Of a stretch of 64,000 nt of DNA, positions 826 through 56,450 are shown in pieces. The stretch is from Mobula hypostoma (Eukaryota). The translations under genes and the position numbers were made by a program. The stretch spans positions 36,892,001 through 36,956,000 of the forward strand of contig NC_086108.1 in assembly GCF_963921235.1 (NCBI RefSeq), written 5' to 3'. The notes under the pieces were generated by a model, which had not been told where the DNA came from, made no database searches, and saw only the letters and a program-made list of their open reading frames with translations. Position 1 is the stretch's first letter. Every line of letters begins with the position of its first letter.

Positions 826-1768
826 TCATGTATATCTGGTGAAGAACATCTTTAGGAGGCAAATGCTTCGAGCTTGGAGCCATCGAGACCCTTCAGAGAT
901 TCGTTGGATGCTCCAGGCAGGATGCTGCAAGGAAGGTCTCTGTGATGATGACTGTAGTCTATGAATACTTGCGCTTTGGGGAAGGCTGCAAAATAGCAAA
1001 TTGCTGGGCTTCCTATGCATATTCCTTTGGGCTAAGAGAAAAGTAAATTCAGCACAGAGCTTGGATATCCTCCCCAATGAAGCAGCGAAGAACAAATTAT
1101 GAGATGTGGCAGAGATTAGCAACAAGGGTTTGGACGATGCTGAGGCTTGGAAGATGAGAATGACAGTGACTCTGACCTCTCTAAACAAAGCAGTGTAAGG
1201 CTTTGTTTAATTTTGCAGCTGGTCACGGATCTCATTCAGGAGCAGGAATTCAATTTGCACGTTGACCCGCTAAATAGCACAATTATAGGGAGAAGCAGGG
1301 TTAGTAAAATGCAGCTGCTCTGTTTGTAAATACAAATGCTAGTCAGTGAAAATGAGAGTGTCACTCCAGGTAGATACTGTGACTTTGTTTTGAGGAGTCT
1401 CATTCTGGAAAGATAAGTATGAGGGGAAACGAAATTTCTGACAAAATGTAAGGTACCAAATTTCCTGACAGGCGCTAAACTACCAAGAAATACACACAGA
1501 ATTGCTGTACTCCAGGTAAAGCTATTTTTCAGTGGTCAACAGTGTTAGTTTCAGTATTGGGTGCACAAATTTCTAGCCTTCATCTCTAAGATAATCATTG
1601 GGTGCCTGATCAGGTAGCTGATGGCAGGGGCGTCACGTGATGACGTGGGATTGAGACGTGTAAATCCAGCTCTCCCATAAAAAATTAGCAAAGTACTGTT
1701 TAAACAAAACAAAGTTAATAAATACTTTCCGAAAACTATTTATAAACTTTGTAAGACTACTTTATGAT

Positions 1769-2853
1769 ATGCCTCCTAAACCGCAACAAAAGAAGTCTGC
1801 TGTTGCGAAGCAGCCGCGAGAGGGGAAGAAAAAAGGGCCTACTGCAACGATGGAGCCTCGGACTCAGGTTGGATCTCCTTCGGTAGAACAGGGAGCAATG
1901 GCGGCGGTAGCGGTCTCTCCGAAGAAGATGCCGGAAATGCGCATGCGCAAACCGACACAACACAAACTACAAGAACCGACAGCCACTGCAATTGAAAATG
2001 ACTCAGAGTCAGAATTGGATTCTGCAGAGAACACAGATGAAGAAGAGGAGAAAGAATTGGAAGCGATTGGAAGTAAAGGAGATGATGGAAACATAAGAGA
2101 GGCTATATTGCAATTAACGGCTGAACTAAGAAAAGTAAGAGAAGAGCTTAGAGATATGAAGATGTGCTATAATAAAGTTATGGAAAGACAGGATAAAATG
2201 GATAAGAAGATTCAGAAGATGGAAAGAGCAATGGGGCATATGAATGATAGAGTGGAAAAAACAGAAAATGATCTGCTTGTTTGGAACTCGGAAAGAAATC
2301 GACTCTTGGAGAAAGTGGACATCTTGGAAAATTTCAGTAGACGTAATAATATTAAAATTGATGGTCTTAAAGAAGGTATGGAGGGAGAAAATCCAATAGA
2401 ATTTTTTCAAAGATGGATCCCAGAAGTTTTGCAAATGAAAGAGGAGGTTCGACCAATTGAAATTGAGCGGGCACATAGAGCTTTGAGACCAAAACCAAAA
2501 GATGACCAATATCCACGATCGATTTTAATAAAATTCTTAAGATTTCAAGACAAGGAAAGGATTCTACAGGCAGCTGCTCAAGCTGCCAAGGATAGAAAAG
2601 GGCCATTGATGATTCAAGGGAACAAAGTTTTTTTCGACCCTGAACTTTGAAGAGAAGGAAGAAATTTAATCCAGTGAAAACATGGGATCACGGTTATCAA
2701 TTTATATTGCGTTATCCTGCAACCTTGAAGATTTTTTTGCCTGGTGGAGAAAAAAGATTTTTTGATGACTACCGGAAAGCAGAGCAGTTTGTGTGAGATT
2801 CTCTGAATATTCACCAGATACGAGAACAAATCCAGGGGAGCGAGATAGATTGA
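1769..2853 (+). pseudogene. L1 ORF1p (coiled coil + Transposase_22/RRM domain), frameshifted near 2640
   Basis: ORF 1769-2650 has LENFSRRNNIKIDG, EIERAHR, PRSILIKFLRFQDKERIL. The C-terminal part (RYPATLKI...FFDD) continues in another frame, with an in-frame TGA at 2794. Confidence 0.9.
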
Positions 2854-3489
2854 AGATGAAGATTGGGTCAAAGAATGGACTTGTTGGATTTTTGAAGGCG
2901 GATGAATATATAAATATATTATTAATTATACGAGGGGGGTAAGAAAGGTTAAAATTGGAGGAATATTAGTTGGGAATAATAACATTAATTTTGTCTATAT
3001 ATATATAATTTTTTTTTGTTGCAGGGGAGCTGGAAGAAGCACTGACCAATTGCTACGCTAATCATGTGTGCAAGCGTGGCTTTAGCCACGACCCGTAAAA
3101 TGGAGGGGGGTAGTGTTGTGTATCTTTTCATTCACAACATTAGTGGGGGGGGGGGTATTTTGTTTTTTTCTTTTTTTGTATCCTTTCTATCTTTTTTTTT
3201 TCTTTTTGCCTGGAGGGTTGGGGGAGGGAAACACATAGCAACATGGTGAAGTTCAAAGAGATTCCCCAAGGAACTATGAGAGTTGAGAAGATAAGTAATG
3301 TTTTAGATTGGAGTAACTTGGTTAAGAATAATGACTAATTTATTGAATTTTTTGAGTTTTAATGTTAACGGGCTTAATGGACCAGTGAAAAGAAAAAGAA
3401 TCTTAACACATATTAAGAAAATGAAGCAACACACATCAAAGTTGCTGGTTGAATGCAGCAGGCCAAGCAGCATCTATAGGAAGAGGCGC

Positions 3490-3525
3490 AGTCGACGTTT
3501 CAGGCCGAGACCCTTCGTCAGGACT
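3490..3525 (-). ncRNA. Minimal hammerhead ribozyme motif (inverted-arm copy)
   Basis: Exact reverse complement of 5162-5197. Confidence 0.8.
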
Positions 3526-4091
3526 AACTGAAGGAAGAGTGAGTAAGGGATTTGAAAGCTGGAGGGGGAGGGGGAGATGCAAAATGATAGGAGAAGACAG
3601 GAGGGGGAGGGATAGAGCCGAGAGCTGGACAGGTGATAGGCAAAATGGGATACGAGAGGATCATGGGACAGGAGGTCCGGGAAGAAAGACGGGGGGGGGG
3701 TGACCCAGAGGATGGGCAAGAGGTATATTCAGAGGGACAGAGGGAGAAAAAGGAGAGTGAGAGAAAGAATGTGTGCATAAAAATGAGTAACAGGTGGGGT
3801 ACGAGGGGGAGGTGGGGCCTAGCGGAAGTTAGAGAAGTCAATGTTCATGCCATCAGGCTGGAGGCTACCCAGACGGAATATAAGGTGTTGTTCCTCCAAC
3901 CTGAGTGTGGCTTCATCTTTACAGTAGAGGAGGCCGTGGATAGACATGTCAGAATGGGAATGGGATGTGGAATTAAAATGTGTGGCCACTGGGAGATCCT
4001 GCTTTCTCTGGCGGACAGAGCGTAGATGTTCAGCAAAGCGGTCTCCCAGTCTGCGTCGGGTCTCACCAATATAGCTTAAAAAAAAAGCCTA

Positions 4092-4868
4092 AGGCTTTTC
4101 ATTCTAGGACGAGGGAGATGTCTTCATTTTTTAAAGAAAGGGGCTTCCCTTCCTCCACTATCAACTCTGCTCTTAAACGCATCTCCCCCATTTCACGTAC
4201 ATCTGCTCTCACTCCATCCTCCCACCACCCCACTAGGAATAGGGTTCCCCTGGTCCTCACCTACCACCCCACCAGCCTCCGGGTCCAACATATTATTCTC
4301 CGTAACTTCCGCCACCTCCAACGGGATCCCACCACTAAGCACATCTTTCCCTCCCCCCCTCTCTCTGCAACCCGCAGGGATCGCTCCCTACACAACTCCC
4401 TTGTCCATTCGTCCCCCCCATCCCTCCCCACTGATCTCCCTCCTGGCACTTATCCGTGTAAGCGGAACAAGTGCTACACATGCCCTTACACTTCCTCCCT
4501 TACCACCATTCAGGGCCCCAAACAGTCCTTCCAGGTGAGGCATCACTTCACCTGTGAGTCGACTGGGGATCACCGAGTGATACTGCGTCCGGTGCTCCCG
4601 ATGTGGCCTTATATATATTGGTGAGACCCGACGCAGACTGGGAGACCGCTTTGCTGAACATCTACGCTCTGTCCGCCAGAGAAAGCAGGATCTCCCAGTG
4701 GCCACACATTTTAATTCCACATCCCATTCCCATTCTGACATGTCTATCCACGGCCTCCTCTACTGTAAAGATGAAGCCACACTCAGGTTGGAGGAACAAC
4801 ACCTTATATTCCGTCTGGGTAGCCTCCAGCCTGATAGCATGAACATTGACTTCTCTAACTTCCGCTAG
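4092..4868 (+). pseudogene. PLE polyprotein C-terminus: RT thumb/linker, CxxxxCxxC motif, GIY-YIG endonuclease
   Basis: FKERGFP...PLVLTYHP...CKRNKCYTC...FTCESTG, then after a frameshift near 4570: YCVRCSRCGLIYIGETRRRLGDRFAEH...VATHFN...LEEQHLIFRLGSLQP.SMNIDFSNFR*. Confidence 0.9.
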
Positions 4869-5161
4869 GCCCCACCTCCCCCTCGTACCCCACCTGTTAC
4901 TCATTTTTATGCACACATTCTTTCTCTCACTCTCCTTTTTCTCCCTCTGTCCCTCTGAATATACCTCTTGCCCATCCTCTGGGTCACCCCCCCCCCGTCT
5001 TTCTTCCCGGACCTCCTGTCCCATGATCCTCTCGTATCCCCTTTTGCCTATCACCTGTCCAGCTCTCGGCTCTATCCCTCCCCCTCCTGTCTTCTCCTAT
5101 CATTTTGCATCTCCCCCTCCCCCTCCAGCTTTCAAATCCCTTACTCACTCTTCCTTCAGTT

Positions 5162-5197
5162 AGTCCTGACGAAGGGTCTCGGCCTGAAACGTCGACT
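5162..5197 (+). ncRNA. Minimal type-I hammerhead ribozyme motif in the PLE pseudo-LTR
   Basis: AGTC (stem I), CTGACGA core, AGG/gtctcgg/CCT stem II, GAAA, palindromic ACGT stem III, GTC cleavage triplet (cut predicted after 5193), GACT (stem I'). Confidence 0.8.
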
Positions 5198-8100
5198 GCG
5201 CCTCTTCCTATAGATGCTGCTTGGCCTGCTGCGTTCAACCAGCAACTTTGATGTGTGTTGCTTGAATTTCCAGCATCTGCAGAATTCCTGTTGTTTGCAT
5301 TAAGAAAATGAAGATAGATTTAGCTTTTTTTACAGGAAACGCACCTAACAGAAACAGAACATCAGAAACTAAAGAGAGATTGGGTGGGTAGTGTTGTTGT
5401 GGCTTCATTTAATTCAAAAGCAAGGGGAGTAGCAATTTTGATCAATAAAACGTTACCAATTAGAATACAAAATGCAATAACTGATTCTGCCGGGAGATAT
5501 GTGATTATACATTGTCAACTTTTCTCTGAACTATGGACTTTTATGAATATTTATGCACCAAATGAAAATGATGTAAAATTCATACAAGAAGCTTTTCTGA
5601 ATTTGGCGGATGCACATGAAAAAATATTAATTGGAGGAGACTTTAATTTTTGCTTAGACCCAGTCTTAGATAGATCAACCAAGGCTGTTATAAAATCGAA
5701 GGTAGTAAATCTAACTTTATCATTGATGAAAGATTTAAATTTGATTGATATATGGAGAAGAATCAATCCTAAAGAAAGAGACTATTCGTTCTATTCTCAT
5801 AGACATAAAACTTACTCAAGGATAGATTTGTTTCTATTATCAATGCATATTCAATACAGAGTGAAAAATATGGAATATAAAGCAAGAATATTATCAGATC
5901 ATTCCCCTTTATTAATGACAATAATAATGGCTGATAAGGAAGAAGTGGCTTATAGATGGAGATTTAATTCAACATTATTAAAACGTCAAGATTTCTGTGA
6001 TTTTATGAAAAAGCAGATTCAATTTTTTTTGGATACAAATTTTCATTCAGTGGATGATAAATTTATATTATGGGATGCCATGAAAGCATATCTTAGGGGC
6101 CAGATAATAAGTTATACGTCTAAAATTAAGAAAGAATATATGGCAGAACTAGATCAATTGGAAAAAGAGATTACAAAAATAGAAAAAGAATCTCAAAGAT
6201 ATATGTCAGAAGAAAAACGAAGACAACTTGTTAATAAGAAGTTACAATATAATACGCTTCAGACATATAGAACGGAAAAAGCAATTATAAGAACTAAGCA
6301 AAGGTATTATGAGTTAAGTGAGAGAGCACATATAATTCTTGCCTGGCAGTTGAAAACAGAACAAGCTTCCAAAACAATAAATGCAATTAGAACAAGGGCA
6401 AATAAAATATCTTATAAACCTCTTGAAATAAATGAAACCTTTAAAAGTTTCTATTCTGAATTATATCAATCAGAATCACAAAATGATGTTAATGAGATAG
6501 AAAGGTTTTTATCACAAGTATCTCTTCCAAAATTGAATTTGGAAGAACAGAAGGGATTAGATATGCCTTTTACATTAAAAGAAGTTGAAGAAGCTTTAGG
6601 ATCACTCCAAAGTAATAAATCTCCAGGAGAAGATGGTTTTCCACCTGAATTCTATAAAAAATTTAAAGATTTATTATTTCCTCTCTTTATGGAACTAATA
6701 CGTCAAGCAGAAAAAACACATACACTCCCAGAATCTTTTTCAACAGCGATTGTAATAGTATTGCCAAAAAAAGACAGAGACCCTATGAAACCAACATCAT
6801 ACAGGCCTATTTCTCTATTGAATACGAATTATAAAATAATAGCAAAAATTTTATTGAATAGATTATCTAAATATTTACCAAAATTAATAAATATGGATCA
6901 AACAGGATTTATTAAAAATAGACAATTGGCAGATAATGTAACCCGGCTACTCAGTATAATTCATTTGGCACAAAAAAGGGATGAGAAGAGTATAGTAGTA
7001 GCCTTGGATGCAGAAAAAGCATTTGATAGATTAGAATGGGATTTTTTATTTAAAGTATTAGAAAAATATGGGTTAGGAACATCTTTTATAAATTGGATTA
7101 AAACTTTAAATTCTAACCCTAAGGTTAAAGTAGTGACAAACTCTCAAATTTCAACACCATTCCAGTTAAAAAGGTCAACTAGACAAGGTTGTCCATTATC
7201 ACCTGCTTTATTTGTACTGGCGATAGAGCCATTAGCAGAACTAATCTGAATTGATCCAGATATTATGGGTTTTAGAGTTAATCAGGAGGAATATGCTGAT
7301 GTTGTTTTGATTTACTTAACAAACCCACAACATTTGTTACATAAATTATCTTCTAGATTGGATGAATATGGGAAGGTATCAGGTTATAAAATAAATTGGG
7401 ATAAAAGTGAAATTTTACCTCTTACTAAAGGAGACTATAGTCAATGTCGATTAGTAACCCAATTTAGATGGCCGGTAAATGGTATAAAGTATTTAGGTAT
7501 AAGACTTGATAATGATGTAAAGAATTTATATAAATTTAATTATTTACCACTATTGAAAAAAATTCAAGAAGATTTTGACAAATGGATGATACTACCAATA
7601 ACATTAGTAGGTAGAGTCAATGTTGTAAAAATGAATATATTTCCTAGATTACAGTATTTGCTTCAAACATTACCAATACAATTGCCACAGAAGTTCTTTC
7701 AAGAGTTAAATAAATGTGAGAGAAAATTTCTTTGGAAAGGTAAAATGTCAAGAATATCATTGGAAAAATTGACATGTAAATTTGGGTTAGGAGGGTTACA
7801 ACTTCCAAACTTTAAAAATTATTATAAAGCAAATCAACTTAGATTTATTGCATCTTTCTTTGATGATCGAAAACCAGCATGGATTAAAATAGAATTAGAC
7901 AAGATAGGAGAAAATAGACCTGAAGATTTTATATATAAATGGGAATCTAAATGGATACGGGAAAAGAAAGAATCTCCTATATTAACACATTTGATTGATC
8001 TATGGAATAAGATAAATGTTGATAATGAAACACAGAAATCTCTATTAGCAAGGAGACTTTTTTCCAAAACAGACTTATTCCTTTTACAATGGGCAATCAA

Positions 8101-9202
8101 CTTTTATATAATTGGTACCAAAAAGGGATTAAATTTATAGGAGATGGTTATGAACGAGGTATATTGATGTCATTTGAACAACTAAAGGATAAATATAAAA
8201 TATCAAATAATACTTTCTTTTGTTACCTTCAATTAAGGGCTTACTTAAAAGGTAAGCTGGGCCAAACAATGTTTTTGCCAAAACCTAATGAAATTGAAAC
8301 TTTAATTCAAAAAGGGAAAATTAAAAAAATTATTTCTTGTATGTATAATTTGATTCAAGAACAGACAATTAAACAAGGAATCCATAAGTCAAAGCAAAAA
8401 TGGGAAACAGATCAGAATATTAATATTGATGAAACAAATTGGTCAAGACTCTGTCTTGACAGTATGACAAATACAATAAATGTTCGACTTAGATTAGTAC
8501 AATATAATTTTTTACACCAATTATATATTACACCACAAAAAATAAATAGATTAAATTCAAATCTATCTGATAAATGCTTTCGGTGTAATCAAGAAATTGG
8601 TAGTTTTTTACATTCTACTTGGTCTTGTTTTAAAATTCAACCCTTTTGGATAAATTTAAGAGTCTTATTGGAACAAATTACTGGAACTCAACTTCCACAT
8701 AACCCTGTATTATTTCTATTAGGTGATATTGAAGGGATAAAACCGAAACTGAAATTGAATAAATATCAGAAAGAATTTATAAAAATTGCATTGACAGTAG
8801 CTAAGAAGACTATAGCAGTTACTTGGAAATCTGATTCGTATTTAAGTATGGATCGTTGGAATAATGAAATGGCTAGTTCTATTCCACTCGAAAAAATTAC
8901 TTATAATTTAAGAGATAAATATGTAACATTTTTGAATATTTGGCGCCCTTATTTACAAAAGATAGGATGGCATATTTAAGTGCTCCGATAAAGATCTTGG
9001 TCCCTTGGGGAAAGTAATGAATAATTATACCAAATTTATTTTGAATCCCATGGAGCATGTGGAAACCTTCCAACATCCAGGCAGCTCTTCCTTTTTTTTC
9101 TCTTCTTTCTTTTTAGGTAGGACTATATATGGGGGGGAGGGGACGGTTAAGGGGAGGGGGGAGGGTAGATTTTATCTTTTCATTTATTCTTTTTGAAAAC
9201 TC

Positions 9203-10928: not shown

Positions 10929-11820
10929 CTCAGTCTGCAACCTTCACCACAAAGCCATCAATTCCATTATCCAAATCATTGACAAACAATGTGAAAAGTA
11001 GCGGTCCTAATACTGACCCCTGAGGAAAACCACAAGTCACTGGCAGCTAACCAGAAAAGGACACTTTTATTCCCACGTTGCCTCCTGTCTGCCAGCCATC
11101 CCTCTATCCATGACAGTATCTTTCCTGTAATGCCATGGGATTTTATCTTGTTAACCAGTCTCATCTGTGGCACCTTATCAAATGCCTTCTGAAAATCCAA
11201 GTAAATGATATCCATTGCTTCTCCTTTGTCCACCCTGCTTGTAACTTCCTCGAAGAACTCTAAAAGATTTGTTAGGCAAGACTTCCCTTCACAGAGACCA
11301 TGCTGACTTTGACTTATTTTATCATTAGTCTCCAAGTACCCCAAAACCTCATCCTTAATAATGGACTGCAACACTTTCCCAACCACTGAGGTCAGGCTAA
11401 CTGGTCTATAATTTCCTTTCTTTTGCGTTCCTCCCTTCTTTAAGAGTGGAATGACATTTTCAATTTTCCAGTCCTCCGGAACCATGCCAGAATTAGGTGA
11501 TTCTTGAAAGATCATTACCAATACATCTGCTGTCTCTTCAGCAACCTCTTTCAGGACTCTGAGATGTAGTCTGTTTGGTCCAGGTGACTTATATACCTTA
11601 AGACCTTTCAGTCTGCCTAGGACTTTTTCCATTTGTAATAGCAATGGCACTCACTCCTGCTCCCTGACACATACGGACCTCTGGCACACTGCCAGTGTCT
11701 TGAGCGGTGAAGACTAATGCCATGTACTTATTTAGTCCATCTGCCATTTGTTTTTCCCCCATTACTACCTCACCAGTATCAACTCTCACCTCCCTTTTAC
11801 ACTTTCTATAACCTAAAAAA
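10929..11820 (-). mobile_element. CR1 LINE RT fragment
   Basis: ORF 10976-11650: KSPGP, VPEDWK, GNYRPVSLTSVVGK, KSCLTNL, YLDFQKAFD. Confidence 0.9.
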
Positions 11821-11825
11821 AAAGG

Positions 11826-12810
11826 AGGCTGCACCAGGAATACTGAATACAATAAACAATCATGATGGATTCATGCGTGAAGTGCTGCCTCACCTGGAAG
11901 GACAGTTGAGGTCCCTGAATCGTTGTGAAGGATGAGGTGTAAGGGCAGGTGTAGCATTTATCATGGTTCTAGGGATAAGTACCTAGAGGAGTATGAGGGG
12001 TGATTGATAAGTTCGTGGCCTAGGGTAGAAAGAGTCAATTTTGGAAAACCTAGCACATATAATTTTTCAACATAGTCTCCTCCTACATTTACACACTTAG
12101 TCCAGCGGTCCTGGAGCATATGGATCTTGGACCTCCAGAAAGTGTCCACAGCAGGGGTGATTGATAAGTTCGTGGCCTAAGGTAGAAGGAGATGAGTTAT
12201 ACAGCTCTCGTTACATGCACATGCTGTTCAACTCTTTGAGTGATTATGCAGAAAGTTTGAAGTTAATCACTCATCAGGGGTGATTGGTAAGTTTGTGGCC
12301 CAAGGTAGAAGGAGATAAATTATTAACTTCAAACTTTCTGCATAACCACTCAAAGAGTTGAACTGCATGTGCATGTAATGAGAGCCGTATAACATCTCCT
12401 TCTACCTTAGGCCACGAACTTATCGATCACCCCTCCTATCGGTGAGAAGAGCGACCGGACAAGGGAATCACAGAGAGAGTGACCTGTGGGGAAAACAGAG
12501 AGGAGAGGGGAATGTGTCACTGGTGGTGGAATCCTGTTAGAGATGGTGGAAGCTATGGAGAATGATATGTTGGATGTGGGGAGGTTGTTGAGGTCAAGGG
12601 GAATTCTACCCTTGCTACGTTAGGCAGATGGGGTGAGGGCAGCTATGCAGGAAATGGAGATGTGGGTGAGGCCTGTATTGATAGCGGTAGAGGGGAATCC
12701 TCATTTCCTAAAAAAAAGAGGATATTTTGTTGCTCTGCTGAAGGATCTTTGAGTTTTTTTCTGTACAGATGCTACCTGACTGGTATTTTTCAGCATTTAC
12801 TATATTTTTT
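11826..12810 (-). mobile_element. Old PLE remnant (minus-strand body plus a short plus-strand 3'-end copy at 12730-12810), split by a mariner MITE
   Basis: Reverse-complement similarity to 4110-4600 (GAAGTGCTGCCTCACCTGGAAGGAC, AAGGGCAGGTGTAGCA). Degenerate CTGCTGAAGG...AGATGCTACCTGAC on the plus strand. Confidence 0.65.
11994..12436 (-). mobile_element. Mariner-derived MITE with nested TIR copies
   Basis: TA flanks at 11992-3 and 12437-8. TIR GAGGGGTGATTGATAAGTTCGTGGCCTAAGGTAGAAG. Minus-strand remnant RWTKCVNVGGDYVEK matches a mariner transposase C-terminus. Confidence 0.85.
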
Positions 12811-19372: not shown

Positions 19373-20725
19373 ATGTATTGTCAGACCTCCCTCACCATTC
19401 CAGGCTACTAGGATCTTCTCTTAACAAACTTGAGGATCCTGGCAATCCCTGGGTGAGCAGTCATTCTTGATGCATGTCCCCAATGAAGTATTTGAGACTG
19501 GTCAGAAATTGTGACGAACAGATAGCCTGGAGGACCACTCCTGGGAATCTCACCTTGCACCTGGGCCTTGCAAATGAGTGTGTCAATTCCCTAAAGAATT
19601 TGCAGTATCACCTTAGCCCGGGACAAAATGGTGGTAGACTGCTCCTATCTTTTGGGTTTGTTGCGCTGACGAGACGAGGTATCTGGTTTCTGCTTCTTTG
19701 ATGCCAGTCAAGATGTCAGGACAAAATTGAAGCTGTTCAAGGACAGAGATCATCTGGCTTGCCTGGAATTCAGTCTCTTGGCCTCCTGAATATAAGGCAG
19801 GCTCTCTTGGTCTGTCCATACAATAAAAGGGGTCTTGGTCCCCTCAAGCCAGTGATGCCATTTCTCCAGAGCCAATGGATGTGAGCAGCTCTCTATTCCT
19901 GAAGTCATAGCCTGGGATAGCCACCTGGAGAAGACCATACACAGGTAGAGTTTCTGTCCGAAGGTGCCCAATGAGCCAACATTACACCCGGTCTGATGTC
20001 CAAGGCATCCACCTCCATGATGAAGGGAAAGTCTGGGTTAGGTGAAAACAAAATGGGAGTTGTTGTGAACCGCTGTTAGAGCTCTGTGAAAGCAACCTCT
20101 GCTTTGGTAGTCCAAACTAAAGGGCCCGTGGATCTCTTGGTTAGTGCTATCAGTGAGCCGCCACTGAGCTGAAGCTCCTGATGAACTTCCTGTAAAAGTT
20201 GGCAAATGCCAGGAATTGTTGGACTTGTTTCACATTGGATGGTTCTGGCCAGACTCTGACGCACCTTCATCAGATGGTCCGAGGCTTTGTTTGCTCTGGT
20301 GGGGTGATGGAACACCCTCCTCATGGTGGCCATGAATTCCACTGAATCCGAGCAAGTCTCCAACTTTCGCTCATAATGTGCGGGGGCCCAGGACAGGGCT
20401 CTCCCGGTCAGGAGAGAGGTCATGAAGGCCACCTTTATGTGCTCTGAAGGGAACCAGGCTGGCTGGAGTTCGAACACCAATGAACATTGAGTCAGGAAGC
20501 CACAACAAGAGCCCGAGTCACCATTGGGGTCTGAAGATGAACTGGCTCTGCTGAGCGACTGGCAGCCTCGCCGAGTGACTCTGGCTAACTCCTTGTGATA
20601 GCTGGCACACGATGACCTAGAGGCTGTGTACTCCAGGTTCTGTCTCAAAAATCTTTCGCTGTGGCAGGCCATGGCAGATGAGAAGTCCTGAAACCCCGCT
20701 GGGTGCGTGTTAGGCTCAATCATAC

Positions 20726-21045
20726 TGTGATGAAAGACCGAGGCAAGGATGGGTTGGACCCAAGTGCTGGAGTACCTGAGACTGGAATCGAGACATGAAT
20801 CAAGACTGAAACGGAGACAAGATTCTAAACTAGGCATTAGACGAGAATCCACAGTAGAGCTGATGATTGAGCACTGAACCTCTGTTCAGGTGCTCTTTAA
20901 ATATTAAAACCCTGGCACCAAAACATGGCTGCCAATTAGTGGGGCGGCACTGAATCCTTAAAGGAACTGTGCCAGCTATCCAAATTCTGGAGAGTTACAC
21001 CATTTAAACCCCTGAGGCTGTCACGGTAAGGTGCGTGTCGTAACA
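20726..21045 (-). repeat. 5' LTR of the Gypsy element
   Basis: TGTGA...TAACA. Aligns with 18359 onward (for example GAGCTGATGATTGAGCACTGAACCTC). Confidence 0.85.
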
Positions 21046-21960: not shown

Positions 21961-23145
21961 ACCATTATCTTGACTATACCTCTTCCCATCTTGTCTCCTA
22001 TAAAATGCTGTTCCCTTTTCTCTGTTCCTTTGTCTCCACCAGATGTTCCCGGGATTGTGCTTTCCTTTCCAGGACATCAGAGATTTCCTCCTTCTTTAAA
22101 GAACAAGTTCCCTTCCTCCACCACAGGTGCTGCCCTCGGTCGCATCTCCTCTATTTTCTGTACATCCGCACTCACCCCATTTTCCTGCTGCCTTAACAGT
22201 GACAGAGTTCCTCTTATCCTTGCCTACCACCCCATGAGCCTCTGAATACAACATATTATCGTCTTCAGCCGTCTCCAAAGGAGTCCTACCACCTAACACA
22301 TCTTTACCTCCCCACCCCTCCAATTTCCAGAGGGATCAGTCCCTCCGGGATTCCCCTGTCCATTCATCCCTCCTCAATATTCTCCGTCTTGGCACTTACA
22401 CTTGCAAATGGCCGAAGTGGTACACCTGTCCATTCAGCCCCTCCCTCAGTTCCATTCAGGGCCTCAAATAGTCCTTCTGGTGAGGCAACACTTCATCTGT
22501 GAATCTGCTGGGGTCATCTAAGTTGTCCGGTGCTCCCAGTGCAGCCTCCTCTATATTGCTGAGACCCATCAAAAATTGGGGGACTGCTTCATTGAACAAC
22601 TCCGCTCCATCCACCGAAAGCAGAACTTCCCGGTGGCCAAACGTTTTAATTCTGATTCCTATTCCTGTTCCGACATGTTGTTCCATGACCTTCTCTTGTG
22701 CCAAGATGAGGCCACCCTAAGGGTGGAGGAGCAACACCTTATATTCCACCTGGGTAGCCTCCAATCTGATGGCATGAATATTGATTTTTCTTTCTGCTCC
22801 TATTTCCCACTCGGGTCACTTACCTTTTCTCACCTGCCTATACCCCTGTGTCTCTTCCTCCTTCCCTTTCTCCCATGGTCCACTCTCCTCTCTTATCAGA
22901 TTCCTTCCTCTCCAACCCTTTACCTTCCTTACCCATCTGGCTTCACCTATCACCTTCTAGCTATCCTCCTTCCCAACCCCCCAACTTTTTCTTCTGTCAT
23001 CTTCCCCCTTCCTTTCCAGTCCCGAAGCAGGATCTTGGCCGGAAATGTTGACTCTTCATTTCCACGGATGCTGCCTGACCTGCTGAGTTCCTCCAGCATT
23101 TGTGTGTGATGCTTTGGATTGCCAGCATCTGCAGACTTTCTCATG
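21961..23145 (+). mobile_element. Older PLE, 5'-truncated, non-inverted
   Basis: 10-bp TSD TTCAGATTTG (21951-21960 and 23146-23155). GIY-YIG C-terminus (EEQHLIFHLGSLQSDGMNIDF). Degenerate hammerhead at 23018-23053 and a full 3' tail. Confidence 0.85.
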
Positions 23146-24618
23146 TTCAGATTTGGTCCCCTCAACTAACAGTTAACAGCAGAGAAACCACCTTACCCAA
23201 ATACTCATTTATTCATGTATGATATAAGTGCAGAGTAACTTTTCCTGAGTTGAACTCCAGAGATTGAGGCACAGTCCCAACATAAACCAAGTGACAAACA
23301 GGCAATAGATTCCCAAACAGACATAATGACTAGGATTTGTTCAGTCTGCTATGAGCACTGACCTTCAGACAAATTGAAACTTAAATTAACTCCTATAAAA
23401 GTTCCCAATGTCTCTTGAAGTCACAACACCTCCTCTTTAGGGGGTGTATACCAGCTTTAATTAGTCCGGCTTCCACTCATGATTCTGGTTTCCTTCAGTG
23501 AAATGGATCTAATGAATAAACTCAAGCTGGCTGCGTAGAAGTCAGATGGATATGTAGGCAGTACAAATTTGCTCTGTTGTCTGTATGGGAAAGAATGGAC
23601 ATAGGTTGATTTTCCATCATGAAACCTGCAGCTGTTTTTAAGGGGATCAAATATATCCCCAGTGATCTTCATTTCTCAACAGTTGTGTGGGATGTCATTA
23701 TACAACCATGGTGATGAGCCAGCTGATACAGTTTTCAAAGGAATACAGGACTCAGCAAGAAGCTTTGTAACATGGTTGCAAAGTATTTATTCAGCTGTTG
23801 CTTTTTGAAGTTGTATGATTTCCTTCTCAGCATTAATTGATCACATGCTTCAGGAAAAGGAATATGCTGCAGGGTGGTTTTATAGAGCTAATTAAGTACT
23901 GCTCTCTTGACCTTATCAACTCTGTTCTCAAAGTGCACATGTGGTGATGTTTACTTCAGACTGATCTTTGTTGAACTGCAGAGGTTTATCCAGTTCATCC
24001 TCAACAGATTTCCCACATATAAGAGTATGTTCTTTATTTCCATCTTTCTTTTGTTTACATATACACAATCTTTTGTCTAAATTTTGTCTCTAGTTGTCTC
24101 TGATAAATGCATATGGTATTATTAACTTCCATTATACTGCACTGCACTTCTGAAAATTCATTGTTTGAATATTACCTTTGGAATCTTACTACAAAGAAAA
24201 CAGTTATTTGAACCTCTGAAAAATATGTTCTATTAATTTTACTTCCCTGCTTTTCCAAGAATGTCTTATAAGTCTTTTCTTCTCAAGAATTTATCAAATT
24301 CAGTTTTGAATGTAACAATTGAATTTACTTGATCTGGCCTTTCAGGCTTGTATTTCAGATTCAAGCAAGTTCCTGCATAAGTAAGCTCTTCCTCATCTCC
24401 CTTCTGTAAATGGAAGTGGTTTCTCCCAATACACACTAATTAATGTGTTGAATAACTCTTGGATTTGCTGTAAGAATCCATGAATATAGTTCAAATGGAA
24501 TCAGATGGTGTGCACTATTCTGAAAGATGTCTTAAAATGATGGTGCAAAAGTGCTCCATCACCAGTACCCTCCCTTTGACATGTTCACACAAATTCTGTC
24601 CAGTGCAACCAACTGCAG

Positions 24619-34485: not shown

Positions 34486-35148
34486 GAAAGAAGAGAAAAT
34501 CTGCAGATGCTGGAAATCCAAGCAACACACACAAAATGCTGGAGGAACTCAGCAGGCCAGACAACATCTATGGAAAAAAGTACTGTCAATATTTCGAGCC
34601 GAAACCCTTCAGCAGAACTGGAGAAAAAAAAGGCTGAGGAGTAGATCTGAAAGGTGGAGGGAGGGGAGAGAGAAACACCAGGCGATAGTTGAAACCTGGA
34701 GGGGGAAGGATGAAGCAAAAAGATAGGAAGTTGATTGGTGAAAGAGACTGAAGGCCATGGAAGAACATTGATTTCTCAAATTTCCAGTAATGCCTCCATC
34801 CCCCCATTCAGATTCACTATATCCCATCTCCTTGTCCCTCTCTCACGTTATCTCCTTGTCTGCCCATTGCCTCTCTCTGATGCTCTTCCCCTCCCCCCCC
34901 AGCCCCTCTTTCTTCCATGGCCTTCTGTCTCTTTCACCAATCAACATCCCAGCTCTTTGCTTCATCCCTCCCCCTCCAGGTTTCACCTATCGCCTGGTGT
35001 TTCTCTCTTACCTCTTCCACCTTTCAAATCTCTTCAGCATTTTTTCTCCAGTCCTGCTGAAGGGTTTCGGCCCGAAACGTTGACTGTACTTTTTTCCATA
35101 GATGCTGCCTGGCCTGTTGAGTTCCTCCAGCCTTTTGTGTGTGTCATT
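34486..35148 (-). mobile_element. Fold-back PLE 3'-end element
   Basis: Minus arm 34486 to about 34760 with full tail. Plus arm from about 34761 to 35144 ends at TGTGTGTGT. Imperfect TSD TATAGAATCA/TACAGAATCA (34476-85 and 35149-58). Hammerhead-like motifs at 34584-34619(-) and 35050-35085(+). Confidence 0.85.
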
Positions 35149-36917: not shown

Positions 36918-37040
36918 GACACGTGCAAAATGCTGGAGGAGCTCAACGGGTCTGGCAGCATCCATGGAAGTAAATGAACATTTGATGTTTTAGGCCAAGA
37001 CCCTTCATCAGGACTGAAAAGGAAGGGAGAAGTTAAAGGT
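36918..37040 (-). mobile_element. PLE pseudo-LTR fragment
   Basis: AAAATGCTGGAGGAGCTCAAC...GACCCTTCATCAGGACTG, with a degenerate hammerhead. Confidence 0.75.
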
Positions 37041-37088
37041 GGGACTCAGATAGATATTGGACAAAATGAATTGGATAGTCAGAGCTGG

Positions 37089-37243
37089 GTGGGGTTTACA
37101 GATTGATAGTGTGTTTTCAGACCCATTGAGTGGGGTTTACAGATTGATAGTGTGTTTTCAGACCCATTGAGTGGGGTTTACAGATTGATAGTGTGTTTTC
37201 AGACCCATTGAGTGGGGTTTACAGATTGATAGTGTGTTTTCAG
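37089..37243. repeat. Perfect 41-bp tandem repeat, about 3.75 copies
   Basis: Unit GGGGTTTACAGATTGATAGTGTGTTTTCAGACCCATTGAGT starts at 37091, 37132, 37173 and 37214. Confidence 0.95.
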
Positions 37244-40344: not shown

Positions 40345-41474
40345 CAAACACGAGAAAGTCTGCAGGTGCTGGAAATTCAAGCAACACTGACAGAATGCTG
40401 GTGAATGCAGCAGGCCAGGCAGCATTGATAGGAAGAAGCACAGTCAACGTTTTGGGTCGAGACCCTTCATCAGGACTAACGGAAAAAGAGGTAGTAAGAG
40501 ATTTGAAAGTGGGAGGGGGGGGGTAGATTTGAAATGATAGGAGAAGACAGGAGGGGGAGGGATGAAGCCAAGAGCTGGGAAGTTGATTGGCAAAAGGGAT
40601 ACAAGGCTGGAGAAGGGGGAGGATCATGGGATGGAAGGTCTTGGGAGAAAGAAAAGGGGAGGAGAGCACCAGAGGAAGATGGAGAACAGGCAAGGAGTTA
40701 TTGTGAGAGGGAAAGAGAGAAAAAAAATTAAAAATTGGGGATGGGGTAAGAAGGTGAGGAGGGGCATTAACGGAAGTTAGAGGAATTTATGTTCATGCCA
40801 TCAGGTTGGAGGCTACCCAGACGGAATATAAGGTGTTGTTCCTCCAACCTGAGTGTGGCTTCATCTTGACAGTAGAGGAGGCCGTGGATAGACATATCAG
40901 AATGGGAATGGGATGTGGAATTAAAATGTGTGGCCACTGGGAGATCCTGCTTCCTCTAGCAGGTAGATCCATGGCCTCCTCTACTATCGAGATGAAGCCA
41001 CACTCAGGTTGGAGGAACAACACCTTATATTCCATCTGGGTAGCCTCCAACCTGATGACATGAACATTGATTTCTCTAACTTCTATTAATGCCTCTCCTC
41101 CCATTCTTACCCCATCCCCAATTTTTAAATTTTTTTTCTCTCTTTCCGTCTCACGACAACTCCCTGCCTGTTCTCCATCTTCCTCTGGTTATCCCCTCCC
41201 CCTTTCTTTCTCCCTCTGCCTCCCGTCCTATGATCCTTTCCCTTCTCCAGCCCTTATCTCTTTTGCCAATCAACTTCCCAGCTCTTAGCTTCATCTCTCC
41301 CCCTCCTGTCTTCTCCTATCATTTCAGGTCTCCCCTCCCCCTCCCACTTCCAAATCTCTTACTATCTCTTTTTTCCATTAGTCCTGACGAAGGGTCTCGA
41401 CCCAAAATGTCGACTGTACTTCTTCCTATAGATGCTGCCTGGCCTGCTGCATTCCACCAGCATTTTGTGTGTGT
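40345..41474 (-). mobile_element. Fold-back PLE with perfect 13-bp TSD
   Basis: TSD AGCTTAACTAGCT at 40332-40344 and 41475-41487. Minus arm 40345 to about 40955, plus arm about 40967-41474. Both arms carry the GIY-YIG C-terminus. Hammerhead-like motifs at 40442-40477(-) and 41380-41415(+). Confidence 0.92.
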
Positions 41475-43574: not shown

Positions 43575-43820
43575 GCGTTCCTTCTTCACCTTTCCTGCCT
43601 ATCACCTCCCTGCTTCGCCTCCCCCACCCCTTTATCTTTCCCCTTACTGGTTTTTCACCTGGAACCTACCAGCCTTCTCCTTCCCACCCTCCCCCCACCT
43701 TTATAGGGCTTCTGCCCCTTCCCTCTTCAGTCCTGACTAAGGGTTCCGGCCCGAAGCATTAACTGATCGTTTCCACGGATGCTGCCCGACCTGCTGAGTT
43801 CCTCCAGCGTGTTGTGAGCA
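43575..43820 (+). mobile_element. PLE pseudo-LTR fragment
   Basis: CT-rich tract, degenerate hammerhead at 43729-43764, GATGCTGCCCGACCTGCTGAGTTCCTCCAGC. Stops at GTTGTG. Confidence 0.8.
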
Positions 43821-46239: not shown

Positions 46240-49200
46240 GAATAGGCCAACGACACATGACAAAGTAGATCAACGTCAGCATGGTTTCCTTAAGCGGAAA
46301 ACTTGCTTGACAAATCTGTTGGAAATCTTTGAGGAAATAACAGGCCGGATAGACAAAGGAGAGTCAGTGGATATTGTTTACTTGGATTTTCAGAAGGCCC
46401 TTGACAAGGTGCTGCACATGAGGCTGCTTAACAAGTTAAGAGTCCATGATATTACAAGAAAGATACCAGCACGGTTAGAAGATTGGCTGACTGGCAGGAG
46501 GCAAAGAGTGGGAGTAAAGGGGGCTTTTTCTGGTAGGCTGCTGGTGTCCAGTTGTGTTCCACAGGGGTCTGTCTTGGCACCGCTGCTTTTCGCGTTTTAG
46601 GTCAATGATTGGGATGATGGAATTGATGACTTTAGCCAAAGTTTGTGGACGATACAAAGATAGGTGGAGGGCTTCTCCGTGGACTGTCACCTTGTCGTGG
46701 TGGAGAGACTTGTGTGGTCCTGTGATCCCGAGAGCGATGCCATCTGGAGCTATGCTCCTGGTAGGGTCACTCATGGCGGTAAGGTCGAGGATGAGGTCCC
46801 TGACAAAGAACAATCCAACCAAGACCTCAACGGTGGAACAGGTGGACAAAGTTACTTCGAACTCAACAGCTGTGAAAGCGGATGAAGGCTGCAACAAATC
46901 TATCAGCTCCAATTGTTGTGGTTTCCATGCCATTGGAATCAATTGGTTGATTTGTGAAGTATCATGTGATTCTTGGAGAGCAACGTCAAGTACACGTTAA
47001 ACAAATACACGCACAGGCATCTTCGCTCTGTGGGCCACTTCTTCAAGTCTGTCGGCGATCGGGGGAGGGCGACGGGAGCAGGCAATGTGATGGCTGGAAG
47101 CTCCTGGTCAAGAACTGGCACGTAAGCGGTGAATACTTGATTCAGTCGCTCAACTTTTGGACAGAAGCAGGAAAGTTGTTCAGCAGCAGTATTCACGTCT
47201 GAGCATCCCTATTTAGGATCCACTCTGCTCACCCTGAACTGGGAAAGGGCTAGAAAAGGTACCCTAAAAATAGTCTGCTTCACCCCATCCTGTATGGAAA
47301 GCCGCGTCCAGAGGGATCACCATCATGTGGTCGAAAAACATTGAGAAGTGAAACTATGAAATTTGGAACCTGGAATATATGAACTCTGATGGATAACCCA
47401 AACTCCGACCGACCAGAGAGGAGAACTGCCTTTGTTGCCCAGGAACTCCAAAAATTCAACTTTGACATTTTTGCTCTGAGTGAGACCCGCAGAGCTGGAG
47501 AAGGGCAACTAAAGGAAGAGCAAGGTCAATACAACTTTTTCTGGAAAGGACTTGATCTTGAACAACTGAGGATCCATGGAGTAGGTTTTGTTATCCGAAA
47601 CAGCCTACTTCAGAAGCTGACAGGGCAACCACTGGGAATCAATGAATGTCTCATGACTCTGCGAATCCAGCTTGTCAAGAATCAAGATCTGGATAAATGA
47701 AGACGTACCAGCAGACTTTAGAGACTCAGCAATCGTTACCATCTACAAAGGGAAAGGCAATCGATTTGAATGCGGAAACTATTGTGGAATTTCCCGTTAG
47801 CAACAGCAGGAAAGATCCTCACCCACAGCATGAACAACTGGCTCAAGCCTTTAGCCAAGAAGATCCTTCCAGAGACACAAGCCGGTTTTAGACCATCAGG
47901 TGGAGCAATCGACATGATCTTCACAATGGGACAACTACAAGAAAAATGTCGTGAATAACTTCAACCTTTGTACATGGCATTCATCGACCTCACCAAAGCC
48001 TTTGACTCGGTATCAAGGGAACTCTTATGGGATGTCCTATCCACCTATGGATGACCTGAAAAGTACTTTCGAATCCTGAGTCTCCTCCACGATGACATGC
48101 TTGCCACAGTCATGGTCAGCAACAGTAACTGTAGTAACTGTGAGCCTTTTCAAGTTAGATCAGGAGTAAAACAGGAGTAAAGCAGGGATGCGTGATTGCT
48201 CCAATCTTATTCACCATCTTCATTGTGACAATCATCCACATTATTGAGCACGACCTACCCCCCAAGAATCGAAATTGTCTACAGAGCAGATGGCAGACTT
48301 TTCAATCTTGCCCGTCTCAAGTCCAAAAACAAGACATCCGCGAGTTCCATCATCGAGTTCCAATACGCAGATGACAACAGTGTTGCAGCTCTTTCAGAAA
48401 ACAACCTACAACAGATTCTGACTGCCTTCAACCATGCATACATGAAACTTGGGCTTAATCTTGGACATCAATTCCAAGAAGACTCAGATCATCTACCAAC
48501 CGTCACCAACTGAGACAAATCGGATAGAACCATCAATTCAAATTGACGAAATAACACTGGAAAACATGGACCACTTTCCGTATCTTGGAAGTCATCTCTC
48601 CTCCAATGTCGACCTTAATGACGAGATCCAACATCGTCTTCAATGCGCTGGAACAGCTTTTGGACGTCTCCAAAAAAAAGTCTTCCATGATCGTGACATC
48701 CGAACAGACACCAAAATGTTAGTGTACAAAGCAGTGGTAATCCCAACACTCCTGTATGCATCAGAAACCTGGACAACATACCGACGACATCTGAAGGTAC
48801 CTGAAAAGTTCCATCAATGCTGTCTTCGAAACATCTTAAATATCATCTGGGAAGATAGAAGAACCAACGTCAGTGTGCTAAATGAAGCAAAAACAACAAG
48901 CATTGAAGCCTACATCATCAAGATCCAACTAAGATGGAGCGGTCATGTTGTTCGGATGAAAGACGAACGTCTGCTGAAACAAATCTTCTACTCCCAGCTT
49001 AAAGAAGGCACACGTAAAAGAGGCGGACAACAGAAGTGATTCAAAGACGTCTTAAAAGCCAACATGAAGAAATGTAACATCGACATCAACAATTGGGAAA
49101 CCAATACCAAGGACAGGAAACTCTGGCAAGCCGTCATCCGAGAAGGAACAGCAACTTTCGAAGCCAACAGATGTGCAGAATTAGAAGAAAAGAGAAGAAC

Positions 49201-50103
49201 ATGGAAAGAGAGGCAGCAACAACCAAAGCCTGATCTGCCATCTGGAACTACCTGTCCTAAATGCAAAAGAACTTTCAAAGCCAAGATTGGACTGATAAGC
49301 CACTTGAGAGCCCATAAATAGATCATTAGAATGAAGACCATCATCCTCGACCTCGAAGGATAGCCACGATGAGGTGGAGGGGCAGGTAGTTTTGAGGAAG
49401 TTGAGAGGCTACATAAGGACCTAGACAGATTAGGAGAATGGCCAAAGAAATGGCAGATGGAATACAGTGTAGGGAAGTGTATGGTCATGCACTTTGGTAG
49501 AAAGAATAAAGGTATAATCTATTTTCTAAATGGGGAGAAAATTCAGAAATCAGAGGTGCAAAGGGATTTGAGAGTCCTCATGCAGGATTCTGTAAAGGTT
49601 AAGTTGCAGGTTGAGAGAGATCGAGAATACAAAAGCAAGGAAGTGATGCTGAGGGTTTATAGGGCACTGGTCAGACTGCTCTTCGAGTATTGTGAGCAGT
49701 TTCCGGCCCTTTATCGAAGAAAAAATGTACTGACATTGGAGAGGATCCAGAGGGGGTTCACAAAGATTATTCCAGGAATGAACAGGTTAATGAATGAGGA
49801 GGGTTTGAAAGGCCTAGAGAGAGTGAATATGGAAGAATCTAGGACCAGAGGCACAGTTCAGAATAGAAGGACATCCATTAGAAAAGAGAAGAGGAGGAAT
49901 TTGTTTAACAAAATGATGGAATTCATTGTCACAGACAGATGTGTAGATAAGCAATTGCGCATATTTAAGAGTGTCAAAGATTATGGGGTGAAAGCAGGGG
50001 AATGGGGTTGAAAGGGATAATAAATCAGCCACGATGGAATGGCAGAGCAGACTCAATGGGCTGAATGAGCTAATTCCGCTCTCATGTCTTATGGCCTTAT
50101 GGT
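46240..50103 (+). mobile_element. CR1 RT-to-3' end fragment split by the RTE insertion
   Basis: CLTNLLE, YLDFQKA, VPQGSVLAP, KFVDDTKIGG, interrupted then resumed at 49372. Ends CTTATGGCCTTATGG. Confidence 0.85.
46672..49371 (+). mobile_element. RTE (BovB/Expander-like) LINE, both ends intact, internally deleted
   Basis: 10-bp TSD AGGTGGAGGG (46662-71 and 49372-81). FGTWNI, RPERRTA, ALSETR, HGVGF; RT QAGFRP, AFIDLTKAFDSV, GVKQGCVIAP, QYADD, YLGSHL, LRWSGHVVRM; C-terminal CPKC...SHLRAH. Confidence 0.92.
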
Positions 50104-51839
50104 CCAACGGGCTTGGCCCATTTGTAACTCCGGTCACACACTACTGTCCTTTGAAAAAGCTAAGCAGAGCCCTTAGTTCATGGGCAATCAGGGATGGGCA
50201 ATAAATACTAACCATGATTCGCAAATGTACGAATTGATAACTTCAACAGAATGGGGATTTTCTCTCTCATCCTCCATTGTGATTTATCTACTCATATTTT
50301 GCAATTGTCAGATTAAGGCCCAGAAACACTCAAATTCACTGAATATTCATATCACAGTGAGCAAGCTGTTTAGTGCAGAGAGAACCCACAGTTCTCAGAA
50401 TTAACCTAAATCTCGTCCATACATAATCAATTGCCTGCAATGAATGTTACAGTATTCAAACTACTGTTTATTTCTGTGCTGCAGATTCACCTATTGCCCC
50501 AGCAGATTTCAGCTGATTCAAGGACTGTACCTAAACTGCTAAGTTTTAGCCTCATATCGGAGGATCACCTATAAATCTACTGATAATGTTCATGCCTCTG
50601 AGTTAGAAGGTTGTGGGATGAAATTGCACATCCGAGACTGAAGCAAGAAAAGCCTATTCTAACCTTTCATAGGAATACTGCGCTGTAGCTACTGTATTTT
50701 GAATGAGAGGCTCATGAGCCTTCTGATGTGGACATAACAAGAAAAGGAAGGGTATTGACTTATTAATACATTTTATTTAAATTCTTATGTGATTCTCGTT
50801 TTTCCTCATTTTATTAAATTACCAAGTTGGACTCTTGTTCATTTGCAGGAAGTTCGTCATAAAGCTAGATTGGCCAGTGAACATACAAGGGTTACTTTTA
50901 CTGCAGATGCAGGAATCTGGAGCAAAAAATAAGCTGCTTAACAAACTCAACAGATCAATCTGCATCTTTGGAGCCAAATAGACACTTTGGCACTCTGACC
51001 CTTCATCAAACTGTAATGAAGATATATGTCCTACGTCAGTCAAGCATCCTCTGATGAATTCAGGTTGATCAGACTTTGACTCAACCTGTGATAATCCATG
51101 TTGGATTTTTCTCGCATTGTGTAGTTAAGTGGTGGGTTACAGAATTAGTTCATATCAATCAGAAACAGGAATTTATACATTTCCTCTGTGATAAAACATG
51201 CCAACTGATTGTAGAATCATTACCATGTTGTTGTTTGTTGAAGTGATTGTGTGCAAATCGACTGCTGTATTTCCCACATCACAATAGTTATTGCCTTTCA
51301 AAAGTACTAAACTGAAATATCCTCATACTATAAAAGGTGTTTGGAAAATCTGTGTTAGTTTTTTAGACATCCTCTCACTTGGACACCAGAGAATTCAGTT
51401 TAACTTTCTAAACATACCAACAGGACATAAGCTGCCCTACCTTACATGGGATAATTAGGGTGAATAGTACAAATAAGTGGTTTTGAAGTTGAATGTATGT
51501 GATTGATATGAAGAATTATGGCAAACTTTCCTAGTTCACGTTGTGCAAGGTTTTATGAAAAAATATCATCCATTAAGGATCCAAATTTATAAAATTTACC
51601 TCATTTAAACCTAAAAACCCACCTCTTGTGATAAACGACAATGTAAACATTTCAGGGCATTTGGCTACAGACACTGAAAGTTAAATAAGGCATTGATTTT
51701 TTTTTTGATTGAAATATCCCTGCATACGGTGCAGAATGTAAAAGATAGGATGCTTCTGAAGATAATGGAGATATTACTCCTACAAAAAGTGAATGCAGCA
51801 GAGCAGAGAAGCTAGCAGCTTCTTAAGAGTTGCATGACA

Positions 51840-54679: not shown

Positions 54680-54943
54680 TCTATTTCTGGAATTTCCAGT
54701 AATTGGTCTTGATTTCACTCTGCCCTCCCCCTGGTTCCACATATCACTAACCACCTTGTACTTCGTCCCCTCCCCCACCTTCTTACTCTGTTTTTCTCTT
54801 CTTTTTCCAGTCATGATGAATGGTCTCAGCCCAAAATGTCGACTGTTAACTCTTTTCCATAGATGCTGCCTGCCCTGCTGGGCTCCTCTAGCATCTTGTG
54901 TGTATTGCTTTGACTTCCAGCATCTGCAGATTTTTTTTTTCCA
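54680..54943 (+). mobile_element. PLE pseudo-LTR fragment with 3' tail
   Basis: Degenerate hammerhead at 54809-54844, CATAGATGCTGCCTG...CCAGCATCTGCAGA. Confidence 0.8.
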
Positions 54944-56276: not shown

Positions 56277-56450
56277 CACTCAGAAAATGTTGGAGGAGCT
56301 AGCAGGCCAGGCAGCGTCTATGGAAAATAGTCTTGGCCTGAAACGTCGACTGTACTTTTTTTCATAGATGCTGCCTGGCCTGCTAGTTCCTCCAGTAATT
56401 TGTGTGTGTTGCTTGGATTTCCGGAGTTCGCAGATTTTCTTTTGTTTGTG
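56277..56450 (+). mobile_element. 174-bp miniature fold-back PLE
   Basis: 56277-56327 is inverted relative to about 56357-56408. The loop holds the 3' half of the hammerhead (GGCCTGAAACGTCGACTG). Full tail. Imperfect TSD ATCATGAGGTAG/ATCCTGAGGCAG. Confidence 0.8.

Follow-up and report, generated by a model that had tools for sequence, protein, structure and literature searches.

The window analysed here (64,000 nucleotides of Mobula hypostoma contig NC_086108.1) carries repeated insertions of an endonuclease-bearing Penelope-like retroelement (PLE) of rays, the first of which (insertion 1) lies at the start of ORF2 of a LINE. This interrupted LINE, which we take to be L1/Tx1-like, is broken and spans 1664-8979, with an ORF1-like part at 1664-2650 and ORF2 pieces reaching to 8979; Pfam endonuclease and RVT_1 domains are found in its ORF2, to the right of the insertion's target-site duplication (TSD). 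The plus-strand arm of insertion 1 codes for a GIY-YIG endonuclease domain preceded by a CX4CXXC linker and the end of the reverse transcriptase (RT), the GIY-YIG stretch lying at 4581-4865 on the plus strand (PF01541, E 0.00025, 21.7 bits against a cut-off of 22.6). Frame changes occur upstream of the GIY-YIG stretch in this copy, and the RT core lies outside the aligned window copy. Here, the peptide upstream of the GIY-YIG stretch is 92% identical to protein P0001, and the best protein matches (top 11 of 17) come from Mobula and Hypanus at 68-92% identity. Full-length relatives bear both RVT_1 and GIY-YIG, the linker motif is found in 102 of 120 long relatives, and the endonuclease CCHH motif is present. 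All copies in the window are 5'-truncated, and a tandem pLTR-ORF-pLTR unit was not found there.

Judged by the CX2-5CxxC linker ahead of the GIY-YIG domain, the predicted protein would be of the Neptune/Nematis type. Of these two we presume Neptune, the assignment to the type being drawn from the motif. Neptune is favored over Nematis partly because two sources (PMC8557442; bioRxiv 10.64898/2026.07.22.740005) list Neptune and Poseidon in vertebrates. Membership in Penelope/Poseidon was considered and rejected, as this needs the linker zinc-finger motif to be absent, but the window peptide has it; the CX2-5CxxC linker is described as occurring in Neptune and Nematis and missing from Penelope/Poseidon (PMC8557442). 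Like the C-terminal EN+ PLEs of the Neptune/Nematis type, the ray family shows the order RT, linker, and GIY-YIG, and its inverted insertions carry the tail on one side, though the (TA)n targeting known for that type is absent from the four insertions described below.

In the pLTR, a putative minimal hammerhead ribozyme core is located at 5166-5193 (plus strand), with a mirror copy at 3494-3521 (minus strand). When ten arms were tested by pattern, the core was intact in two (both arms of insertion 1) and decayed in the other eight, and an Rfam search of 3300-5400 gave no match. Minimal hammerhead ribozymes in PLE repeats have been described (PMC4209133).

The preliminary description had reported four inverted insertions, and all four are present where it placed them, each bracketed by a 10-15-bp target duplication. 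Insertion 1 begins after the left TSD copy (15 bp, 3412-3426, plus strand), an exact repeat of the right copy (5299-5313, plus strand). Between them lie a tail-less inverted arm of 647 nt (3427-4073, minus strand; reference 4614-5260), an 18-nt filler at the inner joint (4074-4091, no strand), and a tail-bearing arm of 1207 nt (4092-5298, plus strand) that contains the RT thumb/linker, the GIY-YIG coding end, the 3' pLTR, and the tail. The two arms agree in 644 of 647 columns, and the filler contains an A run and an 8-nt inverted copy (4083-4090) that mirrors the first bases of the plus arm. In insertion 2, the tail-bearing arm is the shorter one (280 nt, 34486-34765, minus strand; tail 34486-34524), and the tail-less arm of about 382 nt (34763-35144, plus strand) overlaps it by 3 nt at the inner joint; the loop aligns to the plus strand (score 87 versus 20). 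In a correction to the earlier description, its tail-less arm ends at 35144, and 4 extra nt then precede the TSD. Insertion 3 has a tail-bearing arm of about 624 nt (40345-40968, minus strand; tail 40345-40383) and a tail-less arm of 508 nt (40967-41474, plus strand), with a 2-nt inner overlap if a small deletion is allowed. Insertion 4, delimited by profile search and arm alignment, has a tail-less arm of 55 nt (56277-56331, minus strand) and a tail-bearing arm of 121 nt (56330-56450, plus strand; tail 56409-56450), again with a 2-nt inner-joint overlap. Identity between the arms is 99.5, 88.8, 89.4, and 83.6% for insertions 1-4, respectively. One tail-bearing and one tail-less arm thus make up each of the four units, for which the chance is 0.06 under independent choice.

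With regard to the other TSDs, that of insertion 2 is 10 bp with 1 mismatch (34476-34485/35149-35158), that of insertion 3 is 13 bp and exact (40332-40344/41475-41487), and that of insertion 4 is 12 bp with 2 mismatches (56265-56276/56451-56462), of which the automatic search recovered a 9-bp, 1-mismatch core. Among 3000 random boundary pairs, scores of at least 6, 7, and 13 were reached in 45, 13, and 1, respectively; this null allowed ±3 nt, and the TSD of insertion 2, at 4 nt from the arm end, falls slightly outside it. Each whole inverted unit is enclosed by one TSD. The TSD of insertion 3 has the same palindromic 4-mer at both ends, so that both primers end alike.

The 3' ends of the arms fall at two places in the element. 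The short (proximal) end site lies at 5257-5260 (plus strand), where six tail-less 3' ends stop, and the 38-nt tail follows at 5261-5298 (plus strand) up to the long (distal) end at 5297-5299, as established from partner-arm measurement and contig loose ends. In insertions 1-4, the short ends map to reference positions 5260, 5258, 5258, and 5257, and the long ends vary among 5297, 5298, and 5299. An offset of 38, 39, 39, and 41 nt between the two ends had been claimed, and our measurement of the tails in the partner arms gave nearly the same values (38, 39, 39, and 42 nt). The further claim that the inverted arms stop at the same TGTGTG site holds as regards the clustering, though the stop is a window of 4-5 nt rather than a single site. 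In fact, the chance of four ends falling inside 5 nt is 0.0004, even with the range limited to 100 nt.

A profile search of the 64-kb window (threshold E < 1e-6; best match in the reversed-window control, E 0.66) identified 13 pLTR 3' ends, 7 with tail sequence and 6 at the short site; this count leaves out weak matches (E of 0.046 and above) and a pLTR-less internal fragment at 11877-12725. The tail-carrying ends are at 5298, 34486, 40345, 56450, 23148, about 54940, and about 50901, the last being distant and with a tail that looks shorter. Solo copies use either end, three being with the tail and two without. Those with it are a copy at 22059-23148 (plus strand), for which alignment and profile search found no inverted partner, one at 54793-54940 (plus strand, profile search) with a run of T at the end of its tail, and a copy of a distant subfamily at 50901-51015 (minus strand, E 3.3e-07). 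Those without are the pLTR fragments at 36918-37038 (minus strand, profile search) and 43712-43817 (plus strand, diverged, end ±3 nt); both had been said to end at the short site, and their ends map roughly to 5258 and 5256 (±2-3 nt, given the divergence). Poly(A) is absent at every long end. A tandem repeat of an approximately 41-nt unit (37085-37200) adjoins the solo pLTR at 36918.

The element family is very abundant in rays, with 173,964 and 131,806 contigs aligning to 600 bases of the element in two species. In both species, loose contig ends cluster at 5297 (381 and 322 contigs). The plurality flank past this position is TGATT and then AT-rich in both, with an agreement of only 0.39-0.40, and it recalls the ATT cut preference reported for the anole Poseidon protein (PMC11167929). 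Moreover, the loose letters past 5297 start with TG in the two species, a weak hint that the template continues beyond the long end. A genome-wide bimodal distribution of ends had been proposed as the check, and in the contigs the long end is seen as a cluster; the short end is absent among the 12 loose-end rows listed out of 1513, with some loose ends uncounted, and gives no step in depth at 5260, positions 5261-5280 being deeper than 5241-5260, though contig depth cannot reveal such a step. An opposite-strand joint (5163/5252), seen in 4 contigs of one species and 3 of the other, may reflect a short inversion that arose repeatedly or the amplification of a subfamily. DNA pattern scans for ray loci gave 0 hits in viral contigs, 0 in metagenome contigs, and 1, taken as chance, in genome contigs.

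Elsewhere, 80 distant loci were scanned and inverted repeats occurred in 16, with seven loci inspected (L005, L006, L009, L052, L054, L067, and L011). In a distant family from metagenome loci, two of five pLTR ends have the tail and three stop 49-64 nt earlier, these short ends being scattered over about 15 nt. In L011 of this family, an inverted arm of 410 nt with the tail (1052-1460) is joined directly to a 5'-truncated sense arm measuring 1.69 kb or more, whose far end and any duplication are not visible. L006 has an inverted pLTR arm, in which neither a convincing duplication nor an assignable tail was found, and in L009 two copies face each other tail-to-tail and look independent. L067 (583-6477) has 376-bp direct repeats (1503-1877 and 4926-5301) flanked on the outside by further direct repeats of 233 bp, and the upstream copy of the 376-bp repeat continues into the element. 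As a separate observation, L049 holds a 238-bp near-perfect palindrome (2893-3130) that begins beside a hammerhead-like pattern.

The junctions of the window insertions bear on how the arms arose. At the inner joints, the arms overlap by 3, 2, and 2 nt in insertions 2, 3, and 4, and insertion 1 has the snap-back filler, which we take to resemble the templated insertions of alternative end-joining. An overlap of at least 2 nt in three of four joints has a chance of about 0.013, though in old copies the overlap depends on the choice of alignment. The tail-less arm is nested within the tail arm in insertions 1, 3, and 4. It is not in insertion 2, where it exceeds the tail arm in length, reaching about 144 nt further 5' and continuing on the plus strand. 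Of 10 minority letters in the contig rows listed, 9 occur in both arms of insertion 1, one of them in about 4% of the depth, and the arms of insertion 4 have a 1-nt gap in common; such agreement would fit a single template, a subfamily active at the same time, or gene conversion. In the short stretch common to the copies, it is only for insertion 1 that the two arms clearly group closest to one another.

At the short-site junctions, 4, 2, 4, and 2 of five bases match the start of the tail in insertions 1-4. The total of 12/20 compares with a null mean of 5.2 (P about 0.002, a post hoc value; 0.001-0.004 across four window sizes). In insertions 1 and 3, the matching bases are target-derived, since they recur in the far TSD copy. 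Suggestively, target pairing would then tune the short start within a few nt and not set it. Microhomology as the only explanation of the ends had been named as a finding that would speak against two defined starts, and it does not hold here, as two of the four short junctions are without it, though the enrichment is above chance overall.

Our preferred reading, to which we assign a probability of about 0.65, is that both nicks prime, one per start site, on the same two starts in this family, and that the cDNAs are end-joined. Judging from the target duplications, the endonuclease would nick both strands 10-15 nt apart, and each 3' end would prime reverse transcription of the element RNA from one or the other of two defined sites, spaced by about 40 nt and both downstream of the hammerhead. 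One strand would start at the distal site and so acquire the tail, with the other starting at the proximal site, where overhang pairing with the first tail bases may tune the start within a few nt. Both cDNAs would copy the same RNA stretch and halt at variable lengths, their free ends would be end-joined with short overlaps or filler, and the host would presumably fill in the second strands. Short inner overlaps and filler are what the joining of two free cDNA ends predicts, as is established for L1 and assumed here. Two start sites have been shown in vitro for anole Poseidon (PMC11167929), and their carry-over to the ray family is our extrapolation. Two defined RT start points were part of the preliminary description, and this part agrees both with the bimodal ends in the window and with that biochemistry. 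Its placing of one of them at the 3' terminus of the RNA is not supported, as initiation in the anole system is internal and the long ends here vary over 5297-5299; both start sites are probably internal to the RNA. Priming from both nicks, also proposed there, fits the TSDs, the non-nested arms, the inner overlaps, and the published two-strand extension, though it is drawn from only four events in one 64-kb window. Our reading is further weakened by the nesting in three of four insertions, as copying back would predict, by the wider scatter of short ends in the distant family, by the lack of a short-site signal in the contigs, by the anole initiation site being non-homologous to the cut DNA, as against the hint of microhomology here, and by the anole start sites being the same on both strands (PMC11167929), so that one site per strand is not predicted by the published assay. 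The earlier interpretation is, overall, partly supported.

The nested arms lead to an alternative that we regard as unlikely, in which the cDNA from the long end self-primes and copies back, and its return strand ends about 40 nt short by stopping, or being cut by the endonuclease, before joining the other target end. Palindromic sequence at inverted junctions has led to a proposal of self-priming (PMC3846280), and the tail has been ascribed to an intermediate that the endonuclease resolves (PMC8557442). Moreover, exactly one tail per insertion would then be obligatory, and the private letters common to both arms and the small but genuine snap-back in insertion 1 are in line with this. A simple cDNA fold-back, however, needs the tail-less arm inside the tail arm, and insertion 2, where it exceeds the supposed template arm by those 144 nt or so at the 5' side, counts against it. 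So do L011, where the tail-bearing arm is the short one, the occurrence of solo copies without a tail, and the finding that the RT in vitro starts at both edges of the tail (PMC11167929).

The match of junction bases to the tail start (12/20) and the sharpness of the long end at 5297 in contigs are, on the other hand, what one could expect of L1-like twin priming, where the RNA would truly terminate at the long end, with the short end placed mainly by overhang-RNA pairing, and L1 twin priming does yield inverted arms inside a duplication (PMC2837659). We nevertheless consider this marginally less probable again than copying back, given that the two short junctions with only 2/5 matching bases are still within 3 nt of the others, that published PLE initiation is internal to the RNA (PMC11167929), and that the upstream 376-bp repeat of L067 continues into the element. 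L1 inversion points are also scattered, with a median overlap of 22 bp (bioRxiv 10.1101/2024.08.27.596794), against 55-647 nt and a fixed site here. Lastly, the arms might have no mechanistic link, being separate insertions, later truncations, conversion products, or assembly artefacts that share an end by chance. The high copy number (173,964 contigs in one species) and the proneness of inverted repeats to conversion could make for such coincidences, but a single duplication brackets each unit, the arms diverge by 0.5-16%, the end clustering has a chance of 0.0004 or less, and the same signature is known in other PLEs (PMC3846280, PMC8557442, PMC2377424). This last explanation is therefore very improbable and largely refuted already.

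Among known systems, the closest is the Poseidon element of Anolis carolinensis (PAc; Frangieh et al. 2024), whose protein cuts both strands and extends from each, favors ATT within AT-rich DNA, and starts reverse transcription at two sites inside the RNA, the tail being the stretch between (PMC11167929). The system needs RNA to +172, extra 3' sequence leaves the main product unchanged, and a dimer is predicted, with later integration steps unvalidated (PMC11167929). PAc and the ray family share a hammerhead upstream of two start or end sites 30-40 nt apart, AT-rich targets, and probably the use of both strands. The ray family differs in its CX4CXXC linker, in a tail of 38-42 nt, in end sites that are U/G-rich on the sense RNA (A/C-rich in PAc), and in the hint of target-RNA pairing, none being reported for PAc; the available text of the PAc paper, moreover, draws no link between this pair of sites and the paired arms of inverted insertions, though inverted copies may already appear in its figure S2. 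For Penelope elements of Drosophila virilis and Adineta vaga, a 34-37-bp repeat is optionally present on one pLTR (PMC2377424), or a 31-bp tail is found on one of the inverted pLTRs, for which self-priming was argued (PMC3846280). The inverted pLTRs there likewise lie in 8-10-bp duplications with an inverted arm of variable length, though clade and host are different and the ray copies in the window are all 5'-truncated. EN+ PLEs in general resemble the ray family in the GIY-YIG domain, inverted pLTRs in a TSD, hammerhead core, CCHH motif, and 30-40-bp tail, which has been reported at either end (PMC8557442); the available text of bioRxiv 10.64898/2026.07.22.740005 does not mention the tail.

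With L1 twin and dual priming, as defined in PMC2837659 and bioRxiv 10.1101/2024.08.27.596794, the ray insertions would have in common two cDNAs from both target ends, joined by micro-complementarity within one duplication. The likeness to twin priming drawn in the preliminary description stops there, as the second L1 primer anneals at variable sites with a short overlap of about 20 bp, whereas here poly(A) is lacking, the second start is fixed, and the overlap spans the whole shorter arm (55-647 nt). In the literature searched, we found nothing on the tail in rays, no PLE-mechanism paper combining Penelope with twin priming (by title and abstract start), and no PLE TPRT structure from 2022 onward. 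The tail and its tie to two RT starts are already in print and our finding is confirmatory in this respect; what is new is the extension of the signature to a linker-bearing PLE family in rays. Earlier work on the origin of PLE inverted insertions proposed self-priming or endonuclease resolution. With its abundance and frequent short inversions with clean duplications (four in 64 kb), the ray family suits a cheap test of how telomerase-related retroelements integrate.

More tentatively, and with rather less than an even chance in our view, the two starts could belong to a concerted reaction, in which an RT-EN dimer on one RNA uses two sites about 40 nt apart, one obligatorily per nicked strand. 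Both RTs would copy the same stretch, with the trailing RT displacing the leading cDNA, and the single-stranded target overhang might pair with the first tail bases and thereby fine-tune the proximal start. If so, the dimer would be gauged by the length of the tail, and hardly any inversions of the tail/tail or no-tail/no-tail kind should exist genome-wide. A dimer model with one site per strand was not found stated in the literature searched, which lacked most subscription papers.

The tail itself had been put forward as a candidate RT-binding element, and in PAc-type initiation the start lies in a stem-loop. Here, a 9-bp stem is predicted between 5211-5219 and 5271-5279, with one double-sided change, and is equalled in 188 of 500 shuffles; folding of the tail-region RNA gave z values of -0.2 to -2.1, and covariation in the stem closed by the tail was not above shuffles. 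The distant copy at 50901-51015 retains the predicted basal stem via a change on both sides. The idea that the tail repeats the upstream unit in degenerate form was considered and not accepted (P 0.03-0.13 in six related copies). The translation of the tail, sought at the start of long relatives among 137 proteins, gave one weak match (E 0.11).

Elsewhere in the window, retroelement ORF remnants at 10976-11650, 49373-50011, 58616-59158, 48446-49039, and 20076-20885 are presumably CR1-like, of another LINE, and gag-like. The internal fragment of the same PLE at 11877-12725 (minus strand) is interrupted by a repeat whose unit, about 30-45 nt long, occurs in several direct copies and once inverted, and which is possibly a small DNA-transposon derivative.
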